From: Pirellulales bacterium
GTDB taxonomy: Bacteria > Planctomycetota > Planctomycetia > Pirellulales > UBA1268
Length of the DNA stretch: 64,000 nt
Direction: 5' to 3'
NCBI GenBank assembly: GCA_965249545.1
Contig: CBDFMH010000005.1
Coordinates: 1,095,116-1,159,115 of the forward strand
The notes beneath the pieces were generated by a model that worked only from the letters and a program-made list of their open reading frames with translations, was not told where the DNA came from and made no database searches. Position numbers and translations under genes: made by a program. Positions 3,041-10,121 of the stretch are shown one piece after another (position 1 is the first letter of the stretch; every line of letters begins with the position of its first letter).

Positions 3041-4763
3041 CTACAAAGTAAACGGTATCACCAGGCTGCAGGAACGTGTCGCCGTTGATCTTACGGAGAA
3101 TGGCAGCCGTGGATTGAAATGGACTTTCAAGGGAAAGGCCATCATTGGTATTTGATCCAGTTGCCTTATTTATAAAAAATGTTCGTGAGTGCGCAACATA
3201 GGGTTGTGCTCGAGCATGCACGACACGACTGGGGGAGTTTGAATTCGATGCAAAGATTCGTATTGTGGGCAGGTTGTGCAGTGCGTTGACTGCACCGGCA
3301 CCGGCTGATGTAAGTGTTATGACCCGTTGCTGGAAATCAATTTCATAGTACGGATTGCCGTTGGTATCAGAGGGCGCGTTGCCATCTGGTGTAGCCCAAT
3401 ACAAATCAGAGCCATCCCCTTCGGGGTCCGTAACCAAAAAACTTGCTACCGTGTCACCTTGATTGGCAGGTGAAAGAAGAGGGTTCAAGTTACGGCCGAG
3501 AATGGAGAGTGCAGGAAGCTGATTTGCAGGTTCGATGGTGACCGTAATAGTGGCAGGGACTGATGCAGAGCCACCGCTTGTAAACGCATAGGAAAATGTG
3601 TCGTTGATAGGCGAGGCAACGTCACTTCCTCCATGTTCGTAGTATGCTCGACCGGTTGGACGAACATACAACGTGCCTTCGGTACCCACGACCTGCTTAT
3701 ATCCAAAGACATGTGAAAACGTCGGGTGGTCGGCGTCTGGTAGCTGCGACCATTCAGTGCCATTGAGTGAAGCAATGACAGACGTTCCAGATGGACCAAT
3801 AAGATCATCATTGTCTAGGAGCATGAGCGGTGACAGGAGGGTGTCTGCACCTTCTTTGACAGTGACCGCATCATCAGTTGCTTGTGCTGCCTGCTTGATA
3901 AAGGAGTAGCTTACAAATGGTTGTGTCTGCACAGGTGATTCACTGCTGTAGACATAGTGTCGCTGCGATCCATTTTGAGCGGTGGTGGTTCCAGCAGAGG
4001 GGTTTGCCTGGTTTGCTGCGAGCAAAAGAAATGCAAGATCTCGGTTTGATGCGCCTGATGCTGAGATGTCATATGTGACTCGTTTGCCGTCTTCAGTTGT
4101 GATGTTTTGAGAGGCGAGCACATCAGTGACTGAAGCGTTAGCATCTGCATTTGTTGGTGGTGAGGAAGCCGTATACGGGCGAGTCTCGTATGTTAATGAG
4201 TCCTCGTTCCATGAAGCATCTGCAAGGACTAAAAGCTGAACGGTTCCAGCCTCAGCATTTGAGCCAGGCCCCTGATACATCGTAAAGGAAGCATCGACAA
4301 GAGTATCTGAAGGCTCAAGATTGAGTGATAAGACATGTGTTCGCAAATAAACTGCTGAATGAAAGTTGTCGGTTGCGTCTTGTTTGCGTACGAGCATCGA
4401 CTGAAGATCACGTTGACGTCCACCATTGACGTAGCCAACATCGAGATCGTCTGTGATGGCAAACCGCTGCGTGACAAGCGAAGCGGTTTTATTGTTAGAA
4501 GAAACTTCGAGGAGTGGGAGTGCATTTCCCGCATTCACATGGTCAACAGCGGACTGTGTCATTCGCACAGATGTGCCATCAATTGAGTAGTACTGTGCGC
4601 CCTGCGAGATTGTAGTGTTGGCATGCACGAGCTCAGCAATTGTATGTCCAGCTTCAAACTGATTGCCGGCGGGCTGAAGATACAATTGTGAAAATGTTGC
4701 ATCGAGCGCAAGCCGCGCCTCGAGAGGCTCTGGTGTCGAGAGTCGTGTGGTGATTTGTCGCAT
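2901..4763 (-). CDS. Large secreted protein, N-terminal fragment (Ig/cadherin-like modules), continues in 683..3040 after a frameshift
   Basis: An ATG at 4763 gives MRQITTRLSTPEPLEARLALDA, the planctomycete-style N-terminal motif. Downstream are ...ASWNEDSLTYETRP (DNRLRE-like) and ...DDAVTVKEGADTLL...NDTFSYAFTSGG...TITVTIEP (cadherin/VCBS-like). The last ~20 codons (ISVAIKQCRRKNQQS...) look out of frame. Confidence 0.6.
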   Translation of the reverse strand: MRQITTRLSTPEPLEARLALDATFSQLYLQPAGNQFEAGHTIAELVHANTTISQGAQYYSIDGTSVRMTQSAVDHVNAGNALPLLEVSSNNKTASLVTQRFAITDDLDVGYVNGGRQRDLQSMLVRKQDATDNFHSAVYLRTHVLSLNLEPSDTLVDASFTMYQGPGSNAEAGTVQLLVLADASWNEDSLTYETRPYTASSPPTNADANASVTDVLASQNITTEDGKRVTYDISASGASNRDLAFLLLAANQANPSAGTTTAQNGSQRHYVYSSESPVQTQPFVSYSFIKQAAQATDDAVTVKEGADTLLSPLMLLDNDDLIGPSGTSVIASLNGTEWSQLPDADHPTFSHVFGYKQVVGTEGTLYVRPTGRAYYEHGGSDVASPINDTFSYAFTSGGSASVPATITVTIEPANQLPALSILGRNLNPLLSPANQGDTVASFLVTDPEGDGSDLYWATPDGNAPSDTNGNPYYEIDFQQRVITLTSAGAGAVNALHNLPTIRIFASNSNSPSRVVHARAQPYVAHSRTFFINKATGSNTNDGLSLESPFQSTAAILRKINGDTFLQPGDTVYFVGDYAADDYNPDFRYDNNPNGPISVAIKQCRRKNQQSAWNTCRSHHI

Positions 4764-5010
4764 TGTATCACCGGAGAAAACAAAAACCCCTGAAAAATGA
4801 TCGCAGATACACCCTGCCCCACGATCAAAAGACCTAGCAAAGTATACAGTTTTTATGCAGAAATTGTACGATTTTGGAGCATGCTTTTTGTCAGATTTTA
4901 CATGCACTCGCCGGGTTAAAAACTGGCTGAGAGCGTAACAGGTCGTCTACGAAATTTGCACAGGTTCAATCTTCTACCCAAGCCCCAGCCAAAGCGTCAA
5001 GAAAGCTCTC

Positions 5011-6105
5011 TTACCAGAAACCATCGAACCATCTCCAGAGCGGATGATGAAGAAAAGCGACGGCAGAAAAAATGAATGTTTCAGAAACTACGAACCTCTT
5101 CTTTGTTATTTGTTTGATCACACAAATGGTGGCAAGGACGACAGCAGTGAATAGCAGAATTGTCACAGTGGCCTGCCACCCCAAAACAATACCTACCAGC
5201 ATGCCAGCTAATGAAAATACACTACTGGATGGAGGTGTAAGTTTGCTGCAACTACATAAATATTGAATGATGCTTGTGAGGAACCAGCCAATCAAGCCGC
5301 CTGCTATGCAGGTAACGATTGGAATCATCGATGGCGGTATCGCGCTACCAAGATCCGTAGGTAGGTGATGATAAAATTTGACGGGCTGAAGAGTGGGAAT
5401 ACCAATGGATAATCCTGCAAAGACGCAGAGCATGATCCCCGCTAGCCACTTTGGGCAGCGGAGTCGGTCGATATCCATGAGTGACAGCATCAACAGGCAG
5501 CTGAACAATGCGGCGTGATAAAGATAGATTCCGATAACGGGCCATTTTGTGTACAGAATAATCCATATGATTCCATCATAAAAATATCGTTTAAATCCGG
5601 GAACATTGGTCGCACCTGTCACTAATTCAAAAAGAAAAAGCGATCCGAATATGGTCGCTCCAATAAGTTCAGTCAGAAAGTAGCGGATAGGAATTGGGGA
5701 CAAGCAATTCCGGCAGCGTCCTCCGAGATTCAGGTAGCTAAAGAGTGGTAAGTTATCAATCCGGCTAATAGTCATACCGCAAGCAGGACAGGCTGATGCT
5801 CGTGTGGTGACCGTTCCGCCGCGAGGGATGCTATTCGCGACAACATTGATAAAACTTGCGATGCATGCTCCGTAGTATGTGAATATTGCAAATACCAAGA
5901 ACTTTGCAGTTCGTATACGTAAGAGCTCAAACGAGTCTAAATCTTTAGCATGTATGACAGACGGCTGTTCACGAAAATTTTGTAGAAATGCATCAGCCGT
6001 TGGAACAATGACCAGGTAGGTAAATAGAATGCCACCAATTGATAGCCATGCGAGTGTCCGAAGCGACCATGTCTTCTTCTGTTCGTGGTCGCTTTCGTTA
6101 TCCAC
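5011..6105 (-). CDS. Prepilin peptidase (A24 family) homolog
   Basis: ACPACGMTISRIDNLPLFSYLNLGGRCRNCLSPIPIRYFLTELIGA is the PilD N-terminal Cys-box domain. It is followed by a polytopic membrane region with LMDIDRL (first Asp motif). No GxGD motif is visible. Confidence 0.7.
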   Translation of the reverse strand: MDNESDHEQKKTWSLRTLAWLSIGGILFTYLVIVPTADAFLQNFREQPSVIHAKDLDSFELLRIRTAKFLVFAIFTYYGACIASFINVVANSIPRGGTVTTRASACPACGMTISRIDNLPLFSYLNLGGRCRNCLSPIPIRYFLTELIGATIFGSLFLFELVTGATNVPGFKRYFYDGIIWIILYTKWPVIGIYLYHAALFSCLLMLSLMDIDRLRCPKWLAGIMLCVFAGLSIGIPTLQPVKFYHHLPTDLGSAIPPSMIPIVTCIAGGLIGWFLTSIIQYLCSCSKLTPPSSSVFSLAGMLVGIVLGWQATVTILLFTAVVLATICVIKQITKKRFVVSETFIFSAVAFLHHPLWRWFDGFW

Positions 6106-6131
6106 CCCGCACCTCCGGCATAAATCTTCAA

Positions 6132-6149
6132 GTAGGCCCGGACGGACTC
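6132..6149 (-). repeat. 18-nt copy of the tRNA-Met 3' end (att-core-like direct repeat, distal copy)
   Basis: The plus-strand text gtaggcccggacggactc is identical to 9811-9828 (inside the tRNA) and to 7975-7992. Confidence 0.75.
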
Positions 6150-6192
6150 AGGCGACACTATAAATAGAGTACCAAATTACCTACATGACTGA

Positions 6193-6528
6193 TTACTCGA
6201 CTGTTTTGGTTCCAATCAGCACCATCTTGTTCCGATTCCCACCTTCAGTATCGAACGCAGTTAGTTGATTCCTGAAGAATAGGCCAGCGGATTGCGTGTC
6301 GATTTTGTACCGATTCGCCAGAACTCACTTAATTGCTGTTAAAGGCCCGGTTTTGACCTTTGGAATCTCGGCAAGATAGTCAGCGAAAATCTTGTTCAGC
6401 AGCAGGTCGTCCGCGGTCTCTGTTACTACATGCATGGGGTTGACTTGGTGAGACAAAAAATTTCGAGTGAGCATCGCAAGAGCGTCATCATAGGTGACGT
6501 AGATTGAGGCACTTCGAAAAGGATTCAA
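6193..6528 (-). pseudogene. Decayed paralog of the 151-aa protein at 7991..8446 (in-frame TGA, internal deletion)
   Basis: The listed ORF 6325..6528 ends ...GPLTAIK* (TGA at 6325-6327). The same frame then continues VLANRYKIDTQSAGLFFRNQLTAFDTEGGNRNKMVLIGTKTVE* to a TAA at 6193-6195. This matches ...SFTAIKRVLANRYKIDTQSAGLFFRNQVKVFDTEGGNRNKMVLIRTK in the intact copy, where the corresponding codon is CGA at 8156-8158. Confidence 0.7.
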
Positions 6529-6752
6529 AAGGCAAAGGAAAGTAGAGAATTGACTAGGGTTATGTGTCGGAATCTAAGAAATTGCTATTTCTATTATCGA
6601 TGTAAACAGATTATAAAAATCGTAGACAAAACACCCTTCCTGCTAGTCGTGAATCAAGACTAGCGATGTCATTGAAGAATGAATATTTAAGCTCTGATGC
6701 CCGGTCGTTTATTTGCTGCTGCATGAATTATTGAAAGGCAGATATTAATCCA

Positions 6753-7574
6753 ATGAGTTGGTTAAGAAAAAAAACAAGGAAGCCAGTCACTCCCAAGTGG
6801 GGACAGGTTTTTGATCTTTCAAAGAAGAGGTTGTTGAGTTTAGACGGTTTTAACTTGTACATCATGCCTGAGGACTATATAGGATCGGGAATTCAGAACA
6901 GCAAGGTGCATGAGCCTCACGTCACAAACGTAATTAGAAGAACGCTATCGGAAGGCGATACTTTTCTAGATGTGGGAGCAAATATAGGCTACTTTAGCAT
7001 GCTGGCGAGTTCATTAGTGGGAAAGACTGGGAAAGTAATTGCTTTCGAGCCTAATCCACAGAATCAACAATTAATATTTTCTTCAATTTTGGAAAATAGC
7101 GGCAACATTAAATTATTTCCTTATGCAGTCTCTAATACTGCTGCAGTTTTAAGGTTCATTAATGTTGGATCTAATGGTGGTGTCGTAAGCAAGTCGTCAA
7201 AAAAGCAGGATTTTTCATTTTATGTCCAATCAGTCATTCTTGATGAACTTCTAAAAGATGAGAAACGTATTGACCTGATTAAAATTGATGTAGAAGCTCA
7301 TGAGCCATATGCACTAAAAGGCATGGAAAATTTACTGAGCAGGCTAAAACCAAATATCATTACTGAGTTTCACCCTTGGGCCATGGAACTTAATAACACA
7401 GAGGCTCCAGAAGAATATCTTCATTATTTATTTGGGCTAGATTATAGCTTATCTATTATCTTAGAGAGCGGTGAATTGAGGGCAGTAAAGGAAGCTGAGG
7501 ATATCATGGAATACTATCGTGCTTTGAACAGAGAAGAAGCGAACCTTGATCTTTATGCATCGCCAGTTAAGTAA
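6753..7574 (+). CDS. FkbM-family SAM-dependent methyltransferase
   Basis: Motifs: FLDVGANIGYFS...KVIAFEPNPQN...IDLIKIDVEAHEPYALKGM...IITEFHP. The gene is visibly AT-rich compared with its neighbours. Confidence 0.85.
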   Translation: MSWLRKKTRKPVTPKWGQVFDLSKKRLLSLDGFNLYIMPEDYIGSGIQNSKVHEPHVTNVIRRTLSEGDTFLDVGANIGYFSMLASSLVGKTGKVIAFEPNPQNQQLIFSSILENSGNIKLFPYAVSNTAAVLRFINVGSNGGVVSKSSKKQDFSFYVQSVILDELLKDEKRIDLIKIDVEAHEPYALKGMENLLSRLKPNIITEFHPWAMELNNTEAPEEYLHYLFGLDYSLSIILESGELRAVKEAEDIMEYYRALNREEANLDLYASPVK

Positions 7575-7834
7575 GATTCACCAATAAATTTAAATTCGAC
7601 AGGTCTCAGGAGGCGTGAATGCTTGAGTAACTAGCTGCATTATCCAAACAGCAAACACTTTTAATTAATGTAGATGCAGATCGTTAACTTCAATGATCAA
7701 TCCAAGATAATTTTCTTATTCGTTGGCGACGACTTTAGGTGACGTCTCAACCGTCATTAATTTTTATGCCAGAGCAGGGAAGTAAGGCCGCGAAGATAAA
7801 ACCACCATGCCTTGTTTTTCAGTATTTAGACAAC

Positions 7835-7992
7835 GACGTGACTCTTTTTGGAACGTGACTCTTTTTTCGACTTCTCATCGAGTGTCATCGAGGATCGCCA
7901 AATGAGCAATCGTGTTATATATACTGAGCAAACACGATATTTCCTTTGGTCTAGTGTCTTTCGGAAATGTTGTAGTAGGCCCGGACGGACTC
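7835..7992 (-). repeat. Duplicate of the tRNA downstream flank (140 bp) plus the 18-nt tRNA 3' end
   Basis: 7835-7974 aligns base-for-base with 9671-9810. By my count there are about 7 mismatches in the first 105 nt and more toward the tRNA-proximal end. It is followed by gtaggcccggacggactc. Confidence 0.8.
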
Positions 7993-8446
7993 AGGCGAAC
8001 ACTGAAAACATAGTACCAAAATTCGCCGTGACTCTTTTAGTTCTAATCAGCACCATCTTGTTCCGATTCCCTCCTTCTGTATCGAACACCTTGACTTGAT
8101 TCCTAAAGAATAGGCCAGCAGATTGCGTGTCGATTTTGTACCGATTCGCCAGAACTCGCTTGATCGCCGTGAATGACATGGTCTTGGGCTTGGGATTCTC
8201 CGCGACATAGTCAGCGAGAACCTTGTCCAGCAGCTTTTCATTGTTTTCCGTGGCTACATACACCGGATTCTCCGTAAGTATCAGCAGGATATAACGATAA
8301 GCACCTTTCAGGAACTTCAACGTGAAGTAGGAATACTGGTTGCCTTTGCCGCTAAGTGGTTTGTTGTAATACGTGAAGCCATCGGCCTCAGCAAGTTCGG
8401 CGTCGTAGCCGAATACAGTGATCGCAATCGTGCTTTTGCGAAACAC
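7991..8446 (-). CDS. Hypothetical 151-aa protein (family not recognised); its 3' end overlaps the att-like repeat
   Basis: An intact ORF, MFRKSTIAITVFGYDAELAEADGF...FTAIKRVLANRYKIDTQSAGLFFRNQ.... A paralogous remnant lies at 6193..6528 in the same position relative to the repeat. Confidence 0.6.
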   Translation of the reverse strand: MFRKSTIAITVFGYDAELAEADGFTYYNKPLSGKGNQYSYFTLKFLKGAYRYILLILTENPVYVATENNEKLLDKVLADYVAENPKPKTMSFTAIKRVLANRYKIDTQSAGLFFRNQVKVFDTEGGNRNKMVLIRTKRVTANFGTMFSVFA

Positions 8447-8501
8447 GTCATGCTATGCTCTCTGTTCCTCAGAACGAAATGACTCATTTCACTCGGTAGA
8501 T

Positions 8502-9269
8502 TCAGGCCCTAGATTGGTGATGCCTAAACCAGATGTCCTGTAGCGAAAACATCCTGCCATCCGACGATTCGGGGTGAGACTCACGCTGAGTCTGCTGGTG
8601 ACGCTCGAATCCAAGGGAACAAATAAGCTGTTGCAGGTCTTCTGGTGTAGTTCCATTGTTTCGCCTAAGCCAGCCCGAGTTAAATTCACAGATCATGTTT
8701 TCTACACGCCCGGCTTCTATAAGGCGTTTCATGCCCTCGATGACATTAGGCTCATACCCTTCGCAATCGATCTTAATCAACTTGATAGATGGTGCCTTCC
8801 ACAGCAATTTGTAGTCATCCAGCATGATCCGTGGAACACTAATTTTGTTGAATTTTGGATCTGAAAAAAAAGCACTCGGTGAATGAAGTGCATCGTTGTC
8901 TGGCATGTAGAGCGTCATCTCTCCATTTTCTGAACCGGCTGCAGATCTTTCTAGAGTGACATTATTGACTTGGTTATCCGCAACTACCTTAACAAGTGCA
9001 TCAAACGCGGTTGGGCTGGGCTCAAAAGCTACGACATGCCCAGTGTCACCGACAACCTGACATCCAAGTGTCGTATACCAACCAAAATTTGCTCCGATAT
9101 CCACAAACCAATCGCCTTTACCAATGCATTGACGCACCCAGGAAGTCTGCTCTGGTTCATATTTACCGAGCGACATTGTTTTTTGAATACCTTCCGTCGT
9201 ATCCAGCTCCATGGTAACGCCATGAATGACATTACGGTATTTTTTGTTACGGCGTTTAAACAACCACAC
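8502..9269 (-). CDS. FkbM-family SAM-dependent methyltransferase
   Basis: Motifs: WFVDIGANFGWYT...HVVAFEPSPTAF...IKLIKIDCEGYEPNVIEGM...ICEFN. Confidence 0.85.
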   Translation of the reverse strand: MWLFKRRNKKYRNVIHGVTMELDTTEGIQKTMSLGKYEPEQTSWVRQCIGKGDWFVDIGANFGWYTTLGCQVVGDTGHVVAFEPSPTAFDALVKVVADNQVNNVTLERSAAGSENGEMTLYMPDNDALHSPSAFFSDPKFNKISVPRIMLDDYKLLWKAPSIKLIKIDCEGYEPNVIEGMKRLIEAGRVENMICEFNSGWLRRNNGTTPEDLQQLICSLGFERHQQTQRESHPESSDGRMFSLQDIWFRHHQSRA

Positions 9270-9811
9270 GAGTTATCCCTCTCTGTATTTTCATTACAAT
9301 ATCGTTTTGTTAAGTGGGCCTTAGGCCGAATTCAAGTGATCCCTATCATCTTGTGATTGATGGATTTAAAAATTGAGATACGAATGTTGTTTAAATCAAT
9401 AGTTGCAGATAAAAAGCGATCAATCAATAGTACTTTCACAAGCGTTTCACTCGGCGGGAGCAAATGAATGGTTTGACGAAGTCGTTTTAAGCCCGCGGAT
9501 TATTTGCAACCAGTCACGTTTTCTTGGATTATCAAAAAAAATCCAAGAAACTTTCTTTACTCCTCGGACACTCGTCCGAGAGATGCAAACCTGACCTTGC
9601 ATATTCCATGCCGGCACGGTCAAGCCAAAAACGGTACTACTACCACCCCCATCCATCCCGATCAGAGGGTGACGTGACTCTTTTTAGAATGTGACGCTTT
9701 TATCGACTTGTCATTGAGTGTCATCGAGGATCGCCAAATGAGCAATCGTGTTATGTATACTGAGCAAACACGATAGTTTCATTGGTATAGACGTTCTCGG
9801 ATATTGAAAAG

Positions 9812-9885
<74 letters not shown>

Positions 9886-10121
9886 GAAGTTTTCATACTA
9901 TACCCGATCCTCAGCAGAAATCAGGCAGTGCCTTTTCTAGAGGCCCCATGCCGGAAAGCTTGATTTTCTGCGGGCAAAACCATCGACGGTTTTCCGCCAT
10001 GTGCGGCATAATGATGGAAGTTGAAAAATGTCTTGGGGCGGTTCAGTACACCACCATCAAACAGCCATACCAAATACATAGTTTTTCTACTTCTCAAAAA
10101 ACGACCAATTATAACACTGTG

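Follow-up and report, generated by a model that had tools for sequence, protein, structure and literature searches.

Probable remains of a tandem integrative-element array at a tRNA-Met gene in a marine Pirellulales genome

Cis-mobilizable elements (CIMEs) are derivatives of streptococcal integrative and conjugative elements (ICEs) that are flanked by attachment (att) sites, lack an integrase and lie in tandem at the target site. Excisionase genes often adjoin an integrase gene and an att site, and some excisionases are winged-helix proteins. Tycheposon islands of Prochlorococcus combine tandem integration at tRNA genes with degenerate remnants (bioRxiv 10.1101/2020.12.28.424599). Here we analyse a 64,000-nucleotide (nt) stretch of a Pirellulales bacterium (GenBank assembly GCA_965249545.1, contig CBDFMH010000005.1, positions 1,095,116 to 1,159,115; hereafter the window), in which two repeat-bounded units lie beside a tRNA-Met gene. 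The unit next to the tRNA contains a 151-amino-acid (aa) open reading frame (ORF) and an FkbM-family methyltransferase gene, a pair that the original prediction, made from the letters alone, put forward as a conserved two-gene module. Our analysis indicates that the locus is very probably a decayed tandem array, consisting of two integrase-less leftovers of a tyrosine-integrase element that inserts at tRNA-Met in this marine lineage. The feature is of an ordinary kind, with some interesting details.

Three copies of a 19-nt core, AGTAGGCCCGGACGGACTC, which corresponds to the last 18 nt of the tRNA-Met gene plus one further base, are present in the window. They are spaced 1843 and 1836 nt apart and delimit two units of ~1.84 kb, A (~6150-7973) and B (~7993-9809), with one FkbM gene and one copy of a small gene apiece. 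Similarity extends to both sides of the core: the tRNA-facing arms are 86% identical over 158 nt (7835-7992 vs. 9671-9828), and on the opposite side the 3′ part of the small gene is 84% identical over 205 nt (6199-6403 vs. 8030-8234). The tRNA-derived repeat said to abut the 151-aa ORF is therefore real; it is 19 nt long and present three times, and the stop codon of the ORF (7991-7993) overlaps it by 2 nt. The motif CGTGACTCTTTT pointed out at the same time also proved genuine, as GTGACTCTTTT (at most 1 mismatch) occurs 6 times in the 64-kb window, 5 of these in the island and all five on the + strand; shuffled versions of the window gave a mean of 1.68 occurrences and reached 6 in 2 of 100 shuffles. 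Together with the core, GTGACTCTTTT is found on both arms of both units. GC content is 0.386-0.463 across the island (lowest listed value 0.386, at 7001-8000) vs. ~0.48-0.50 in the flanks. The repeat scan detected no inverted-repeat pair bounding the units, their boundaries being direct tRNA-derived repeats, and the tRNA was the sole match in an Rfam scan of 5900-10000, which indicates that the arms hold no known RNA family.

The 151-aa ORF is, as judged from its sequence relationships, a fusion of the leftovers of two older genes. Searches of Pfam, NCBIfam and PHROGs returned no family at threshold, in keeping with the earlier remark that the protein had no recognisable family. An exhaustive phmmer search recovered 62 proteins that split into two separate sets. 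Residues ~58-140 match the C-terminus of 160-187-aa proteins with coiled-coil N-halves, and in pairwise comparison residues 60-137 share 63% identity with residues 90-167 of the full-length protein encoded at a related locus, L041. Residues 1-67 are 61% identical (pairwise) to residues 185-251 of P0027, which, like P0065 and P0072, is a metallophosphoesterase of ~387 aa that matches Metallophos; P0027 scores over the Pfam cut-off, and P0065 and P0072 lie just under it and also match Pur_ac_phosph_N. The two parental homologies overlap at an Asn-Pro pair, which places the joint of the chimera at ~8264-8269, and DNA homology to the other units ends at 8269, the same place. What had been described as the beta-rich N-half of the small protein is thus no part of it: residues 1-61 derive from a metallophosphoesterase and represent the leftover of an earlier cargo gene.

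We consider the fused ORF most likely to be a non-functional or decaying by-product. Its counterpart at a second related locus, L038, has TGA where unit B has CGA, and unit A also has TGA at that codon. Owing to an indel near the 3′ end, the ungapped codon comparison of the C-half with L038 is unreliable, and the stop codon and MAFFT identities were used instead. The small-gene copy of unit A, which is 68% identical to residues 58-142 of the 151-aa ORF, is interrupted by in-frame stops (1 TGA and 1 TAA in one comparison, three stops in another). The statement that both units keep the same gene pair consequently holds in that each has an FkbM gene and a small-gene copy, but the small ORF is intact in unit B only. 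The methyltransferases themselves are as first described, strongly diverged members of the FkbM family in opposite orientations: they share 30% identity across 185 aa, and both exceed the cut-offs of PF05050 (59.6 and 71.2 bits, cut-off 22.7) and TIGR01444 (86.1 and 97.2 bits, cut-off 37.7). They are probably surface-glycan methyltransferases. Coordinates of these features are collected in Table 1.

Table 1. Features of the tRNA-Met island and its flank (window coordinates).
Feature	Position	Strand	Evidence or remark
151-aa ORF	7991..8446	-	Unit B; stop 7991-7993
N-half (residues 1-61), metallophosphoesterase C-terminal-part fragment	8264..8446	-	61% identity to P0027 185-251
C-half (residues 60-151), winged-helix-like domain remnant	7991..8269	-	63% identity to L041 170-aa protein; GTGACTCTTTT 8028-8038
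Broken winged-helix-like domain remnant, unit A	~6190..6447	-	In-frame stops; DNA repeat 6199-6403 ~ 8030-8234, 84%
FkbM-family methyltransferase, unit B cargo	8502..9269	-	PF05050 E 5.6e-16; TIGR01444 E 3e-24
FkbM-family methyltransferase, unit A cargo	6753..7574	+	PF05050 E 1.5e-19; TIGR01444 E 1.1e-27
tRNA-Met (anticodon CAT), integration target	9811..9885	-	ARAGORN; Rfam tRNA 70.1 bits
Core copy 3, within tRNA 3′ end (attL-type junction)	9810..9828		Repeat scan
Core copy 2, junction of units A and B	7974..7992		Repeat scan
Core copy 1 (attR-type junction)	6131..6149		25 nt upstream of pilD start
Unit B tRNA-proximal arm	9671..9809		86% identity to 7835-7992; GTGACTCTTTT 9674-9684, GTGACGCTTTT 9691-9701
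Unit A tRNA-proximal arm	7760..7973		GTGACTCTTTT 7838-7848, 7855-7865; homologous to arms of L039, L040
Host flank: prepilin peptidase-like gene	5011..6105	-	ORF; L038 counterpart matches PF06750, E 2.1e-25

The partner of the small gene was sought in a neighbourhood survey of 5 species-genome loci, 27 metagenome loci and 9 stretches from genomes of the same family (4 duplicate genome loci); the comparison genomes of the same genus or family with named records were Pirellulales metagenome-assembled genomes (MAGs). At 23 of 26 full-length loci, many of them close kin and not independent, a divergent ~384-aa tyrosine integrase homolog is encoded ~400 nt upstream on the opposite strand. The three full-length loci without an integrase match, L052, L054 and L061, have merely 581, 576 and 280 nt of upstream DNA. 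Most of these integrases contain PF00589 and/or integrase SAM-like domains; that of L059 had no match at E 1e-4. FkbM genes, searched by tblastn with both window proteins, were found at 1 of 41 related loci, namely L038, where the gene belongs to the same unit B. The FkbM genes are independent, interchangeable cargo and not partners of the 151-aa protein.

The most informative relative is L041, in which an integrase gene (511-1662, - strand) and a full small gene (2064-2573, + strand) are followed by the tRNA-Met core at 2622, with 1 mismatch, and then by the region of the host prepilin peptidase-like gene at 5011-6105 of the window, for which pilD serves as a working label. The L041 pilD region is 85% identical to that of the window, and by this comparison L041 is the intact form at the same pilD junction. 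The observation that the small gene sits where integrases normally do was near the mark in that the L041 integrase adjoins the small gene at this very junction. A complete element is provided by L033, which measures 6.5 kb, has exact 19-nt direct copies of the tRNA-Val(GAC) 3′ end as its two boundaries, carries GGGACTCTTTTC on both arms and has the order core, small gene, integrase, cargo (DUF4345, GNAT, PIN), arm, tRNA; no primase or helicase match was obtained among its ORFs. At two further loci, defence-type cargo lies near the integrase/small-gene pair: a protein with an AbiEii toxin domain in L055 (5869-6534) and a C-5 cytosine DNA methylase in L059 (1711-3015).

Truncated copies of the small gene behave differently from full-length ones. 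C-terminal stubs number ~14 across 12 loci, and no integrase match was obtained for any of them (window units A and B, L038, L039, L040, L047, L053, L064, L029, L019, L009, L027, and L025, which holds two). In the close relatives L038, L039, L040, L041, L047 and L027 the tRNA-Met core comes just after the small gene or stub. Cargo varies among the stub loci: L038 has the same FkbM gene as unit B; L039 and L040 encode an unnamed 218/219-aa protein with faint methyltransferase matches only, and a second unit with Lnb_N and PAP2; L047 has a sulfatase, Wzy_C (O-antigen ligase) and a weak glycosyltransferase match; and in a genome of the same genus (G160, L025) a GT2 glycosyltransferase gene lies between two stubs 2151 nt apart. 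Truncation points also differ, at residue 62 in L039, ~81 in L040 and ~88-90 in units B and A. With truncated copies bearing other cargo and full-length copies pairing with an integrase, the fallback offered with the original prediction, backbone plus cargo, is the part that stands.

Two of these loci call for separate mention. In L025 (G160:C146, 860-3420) the core differs and is not derived from tRNA-Met, and the arm motif, ATGACGCTTAATGAGAAGTC / GTGACACTTGACGAGACGTC, resembles ATGACACTCGATGAGAAGTC of the window. In L028 (G159:C129) a short stub of the domain (4668-4766) lies ~1.3 kb from a tRNA-Val(TAC) gene (6015-6088) on the same strand, and may be another tRNA-linked remnant.

Full-length members of the small-protein family are 164-193 aa long and combine an N-terminal coiled-coil hairpin with a C-terminal winged-helix-like domain; the family has no Pfam model. 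An AlphaFold2 model of P0006, the closest full-length member (170 aa; 41-sequence alignment), has a mean pLDDT of 87 and predicts two parts joined by a linker, namely a long helical hairpin (residues 8-78) and a compact helix-strand-helix-helix-strand domain (96-163). Foldseek gave no match to the PDB at E ≤ 0.001; among its weak rows, at E 0.19 or worse, are globular domains of histone H1 and winged-helix proteins of viruses. The best VIA-align rows for the C-domain are winged-helix domains with Z 6.2-6.9, a range that the tool calls common, and in the wide comparison winged-helix rows of Z 6-7 stand among many coiled-coil rows of equal Z. Sub-threshold Pfam matches are to Linker_histone in 11 of 41 members and to WH_Rok in 2 of 41; no excisionase family is among the sub-threshold matches shown, and no family exceeds its cut-off. 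The family alignment, used as a profile against PDB sequences, produced coiled-coil noise only (best E 0.024), and in the ESM Atlas, where the best score was 0.81, Rok-like and HARE-HTH rows at 0.78 each serve as leads only. The earlier suggestion that the C-half could be a winged-helix-like DNA binder agrees with these weak fold and sub-threshold profile matches, but the searches assigned it to no Pfam, NCBIfam or PHROG family; we describe the modelled domain as winged-helix-like, which falls short of proof.

A short motif accompanies this domain at the DNA level. In 26 of 34 copies, GACTCTTTT (at most 1 mismatch) is found between -3 and +35 nt relative to the end of the conserved domain, and in several close relatives the motif takes the form of two tandem AGTC-containing repeats. 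It looks like an arm-type protein-binding site, to which the integrase or the small protein might bind, and the full-length protein may be an accessory DNA-binding factor for recombination or regulation. Homologs of 142 aa are also encoded on viral contigs (L065, an IMG/VR contig of 194,787 nt, at 4776-5204, and L066-L069; some are ~195-204 kb), with an N-terminal coiled coil, a C-terminal motif with FFRHKISKLETMGGNKK and no integrase-sized ORF within ~1 kb, indicating that the domain is not confined to integrase-adjacent settings.

We then compared the island between genomes and sequencing runs. Against L038, the FkbM gene of unit B differs at 13 of 768 nt and identity over 8258-9457 is 93-100% per 60 nt, vs. 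77-87% across the stub and core (7960-8257) and 80% in pilD (101 of 504 nt differ). Cargo that is ~98% identical beside a pilD gene that is 80% identical indicates that the cargo segment moved recently between diverged genomes. L038 joins 6130 to 7974 and so lacks unit A precisely, with the joint at the core. Some or all of the stretch is present in 20 of the 24 listed sequencing runs (12 studies, mostly marine metagenomes). In run X10 a 3277-nt contig of depth 20 makes the same joint as L038, omits exactly 1843 nt and has 25 shared letters where the two sides meet, and pieces of unit A are present at depth 2-3. These joints at the core show that unit A is a presence/absence variant bounded by cores. 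In run X8 an L040-like stub takes the place of unit B after the unit A arm and core 2.

The sequencing runs yielded neither a circular junction nor an empty tRNA site. Joints in X7 and X8 that go back to an earlier position were considered as circle junctions and rejected, as homologous arms and remnants allow other cassette orders; reads of X23 cover essentially the tRNA only and say nothing on excision. Two local details of the island may be added. One X7 contig carries a 10-nt insertion, TGTCATCGAC, at 9718 in the unit B arm, duplicating an already repeated unit, TGTCATCGAG, which indicates that arm repeat number differs among strains. At the other end (6106-6150), only 25 nt separate core copy 1 from the pilD GTG start downstream of it, so either the island remnant must contain the pilD promoter or pilD must be transcribed by read-in from the remnant.

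The host genome (3.39 Mb in 5 contigs, 92.75% complete) offers no obvious source of recombinase for the units. PF00589 matches nothing in the window, and the window units contain no integrase; across the genome there was no serine recombinase match, and its three tyrosine recombinases all lie away from the array. Closest to the L041 and L008 integrases, with 27-29% identity, is a 303-aa ORF at the beginning of contig C5, at a distance of 1.09 Mb. No further copy of the small gene was found in the genome. With no close integrase present, mobility here would need an incoming element. The 303-aa ORF (G000:C5:508-1419, L034) is the genome's only phage-type integrase, lacks ~80 N-terminal residues of the 384-aa integrases and may mark the border of a further element truncated in the assembly.

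A decayed tandem array would account for these observations as follows. The interval would form the distal portion of a small genomic island that consists of two tandem units and adjoins the tRNA-Met 3′ end. The intact element would have, at its tRNA-distal end, the gene for a ~384-aa integrase and then, ~400 nt off on the opposite strand, the small gene, its 3′ end abutting the core. Successive elements would have integrated at the tRNA core, and internal deletions would then have removed the integrase together with the 5′ half of the small gene. Each unit would thereby have been reduced to a core, two arms bearing GACTCTTTT-type repeats, the 3′-terminal ~280 nt of the small gene and a single cargo gene. 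The deletion in unit B would have fused a metallophosphoesterase leftover in frame to the winged-helix remnant at the shared Asn-Pro codons. This order of events is the one we infer from the present layout.

Several observations weigh against this account. The break in identity to L038 falls at ~8258, the edge of the stub and not the core, which indicates that the last exchange was more than a plain transfer from core to core. Identity is 81-89% among the stubs vs. 62-67% between them and the intact L041 gene, which means that the intact progenitor of the stubs is unsampled; the stubs may have spread already truncated. P0002, an intact 151-aa ORF that is 98% identical and stands for 16 member sequences from other samples, means that the chimera has not been disrupted in every case and that its expression is possible, and the dN/dS of the N-half (vs. 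L038) rests on few changes, 2 synonymous and 6 non-synonymous. Finally, at 92.75% completeness a cognate integrase could be unassembled.

The best placed of the alternatives is that the island is flexible by homologous recombination, with arm plus tRNA and remnant plus core acting as homology arms for the replacement of cargo and site-specific recombination no longer involved. The sharp change at ~8258 lies at the edge of the sequence common to all remnants and not at the core; the remnant in X10 is a mosaic in which 7 of 12 checked sites (unit B differences, compared by eye) match unit A; and the genome has no cognate integrase. The X10 joint, however, lies within the 25 nt shared at the core, and intact elements clearly use tRNA-derived direct repeats. 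We regard this explanation as possible though unlikely; homologous and site-specific mechanisms are not mutually exclusive.

It is doubtful that the array is still active, that is, composed of integrase-less cassettes mobilised in trans by the cognate integrase of an incoming full element, with the retained winged-helix remnant and arm motifs as working parts and surface-glycan cargo shuffled among Pirellulales lineages. Such cassettes would be comparable with CIMEs and, loosely, with the cassettes of integrons. Much of the comparative evidence would be compatible with such activity, including the full core and motif retained on both arms of each unit, the precise absence of unit A at the core in L038 and the X10 contig, the replacement of unit B in X8, the disparity between unit B cargo and pilD, the tight grouping of the remnants apart from the intact L041 gene, and the similar two-copy array with GT2 cargo at a different core in G160. 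Yet neither a circular junction nor an empty site was seen, and the joints that go back are explicable by homologous arms and remnants. Homologous recombination between the repeats (~280 nt, 84% identical) would explain the loss of unit A equally well, the breakpoint relative to L038 is not at the core, remnants contain stops, and a close integrase is missing from this genome.

A more specific proposal, which we make tentatively and rate as improbable, is an integron-like array at tRNA-Met in which core, two GACTCTTTT-type arms, winged-helix stub and one cargo gene form the cassette and the integrases of rare full elements move it in trans. If this were true, surface-glycan modification genes would be shuffled between species-level lineages of marine Pirellulales.

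The original two-gene module, in which the 151-aa protein would be a DNA-binding targeting or maintenance factor working with the adjacent FkbM methyltransferase, is very improbable: each window unit does have an FkbM gene with a small-gene copy, the C-half does resemble a winged helix and an intact 98% identical ORF exists elsewhere, but the survey already contradicts it, with integrases at 23 of 26 full-length loci and FkbM at 1 of 41, that one being the same unit B, while other copies bear different cargo, the unit A copy is broken, the L038 copy has a stop and the N-half is a fragment of an unrelated enzyme.

The decayed-array interpretation changes what the locus has to offer. With the 151-aa ORF recognised as a fusion scar, rather than a new integrase substitute or methyltransferase partner, a false lead is removed. 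In its place, a previously unannotated family is defined, with a coiled coil and a winged-helix-like domain, as a regular neighbour of tyrosine integrases in integrative elements of Planctomycetota, and the conserved short repeat that marks both the small gene's 3′ end and the att arm opposite makes it a candidate accessory factor for recombination. The tRNA-Met site of an abundant marine Pirellulales lineage emerges as a variable island at which single glycan-modification genes come and go. What is modestly new is the integrase's coiled-coil/winged-helix-like partner, the conserved arm motif and this turnover of single glycan-modification genes at the site.

Among described systems, the tycheposon islands, as described, are similar in that partial copies of the tRNA lie on either side of the units, older units are displaced from the tRNA by later integrations, degenerate remnants persist, cargo is variable and strains differ in the units present. 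They differ in host, here a member of the Planctomycetota, and in the accessory gene set; tycheposons pair integration with a replication module, whereas L033, the one intact relative examined for this, shows none, and the window units retain both arms but not so much as a fragment of an integrase. CIMEs offer a parallel, read from sequence only, in that the window units are flanked by the att sites of an integrase-bearing element of the L041 type and have no recombination genes of their own; unlike CIMEs, the units are ~1.8 kb with a single cargo gene, and their parent element has no known conjugation functions. The small gene resembles excisionase genes in adjoining an integrase gene and an att site; this is a comparison of position, and the Pfam searches gave no sequence match to a known excisionase family. 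The modelled coiled-coil hairpin followed by a helix-strand-helix-helix-strand C-domain recalls Rok-like architecture and the winged helices of linker histones; as against those proteins, no family exceeds its cut-off, the fold Z lies in the common range and the window copy is without the coiled-coil half. Integron cassettes, with IntI, attI and attC hairpins, differ in that no tyrosine recombinase lies near the array and its boundaries are direct tRNA-derived repeats. Both cargo proteins match the FkbM family across the full domain. The closest fit is to a tRNA-integrated tyrosine-integrase island, with direct repeats, polymorphism and atypical GC content all found at this site and the integrase, absent here, present in L041 and L033.

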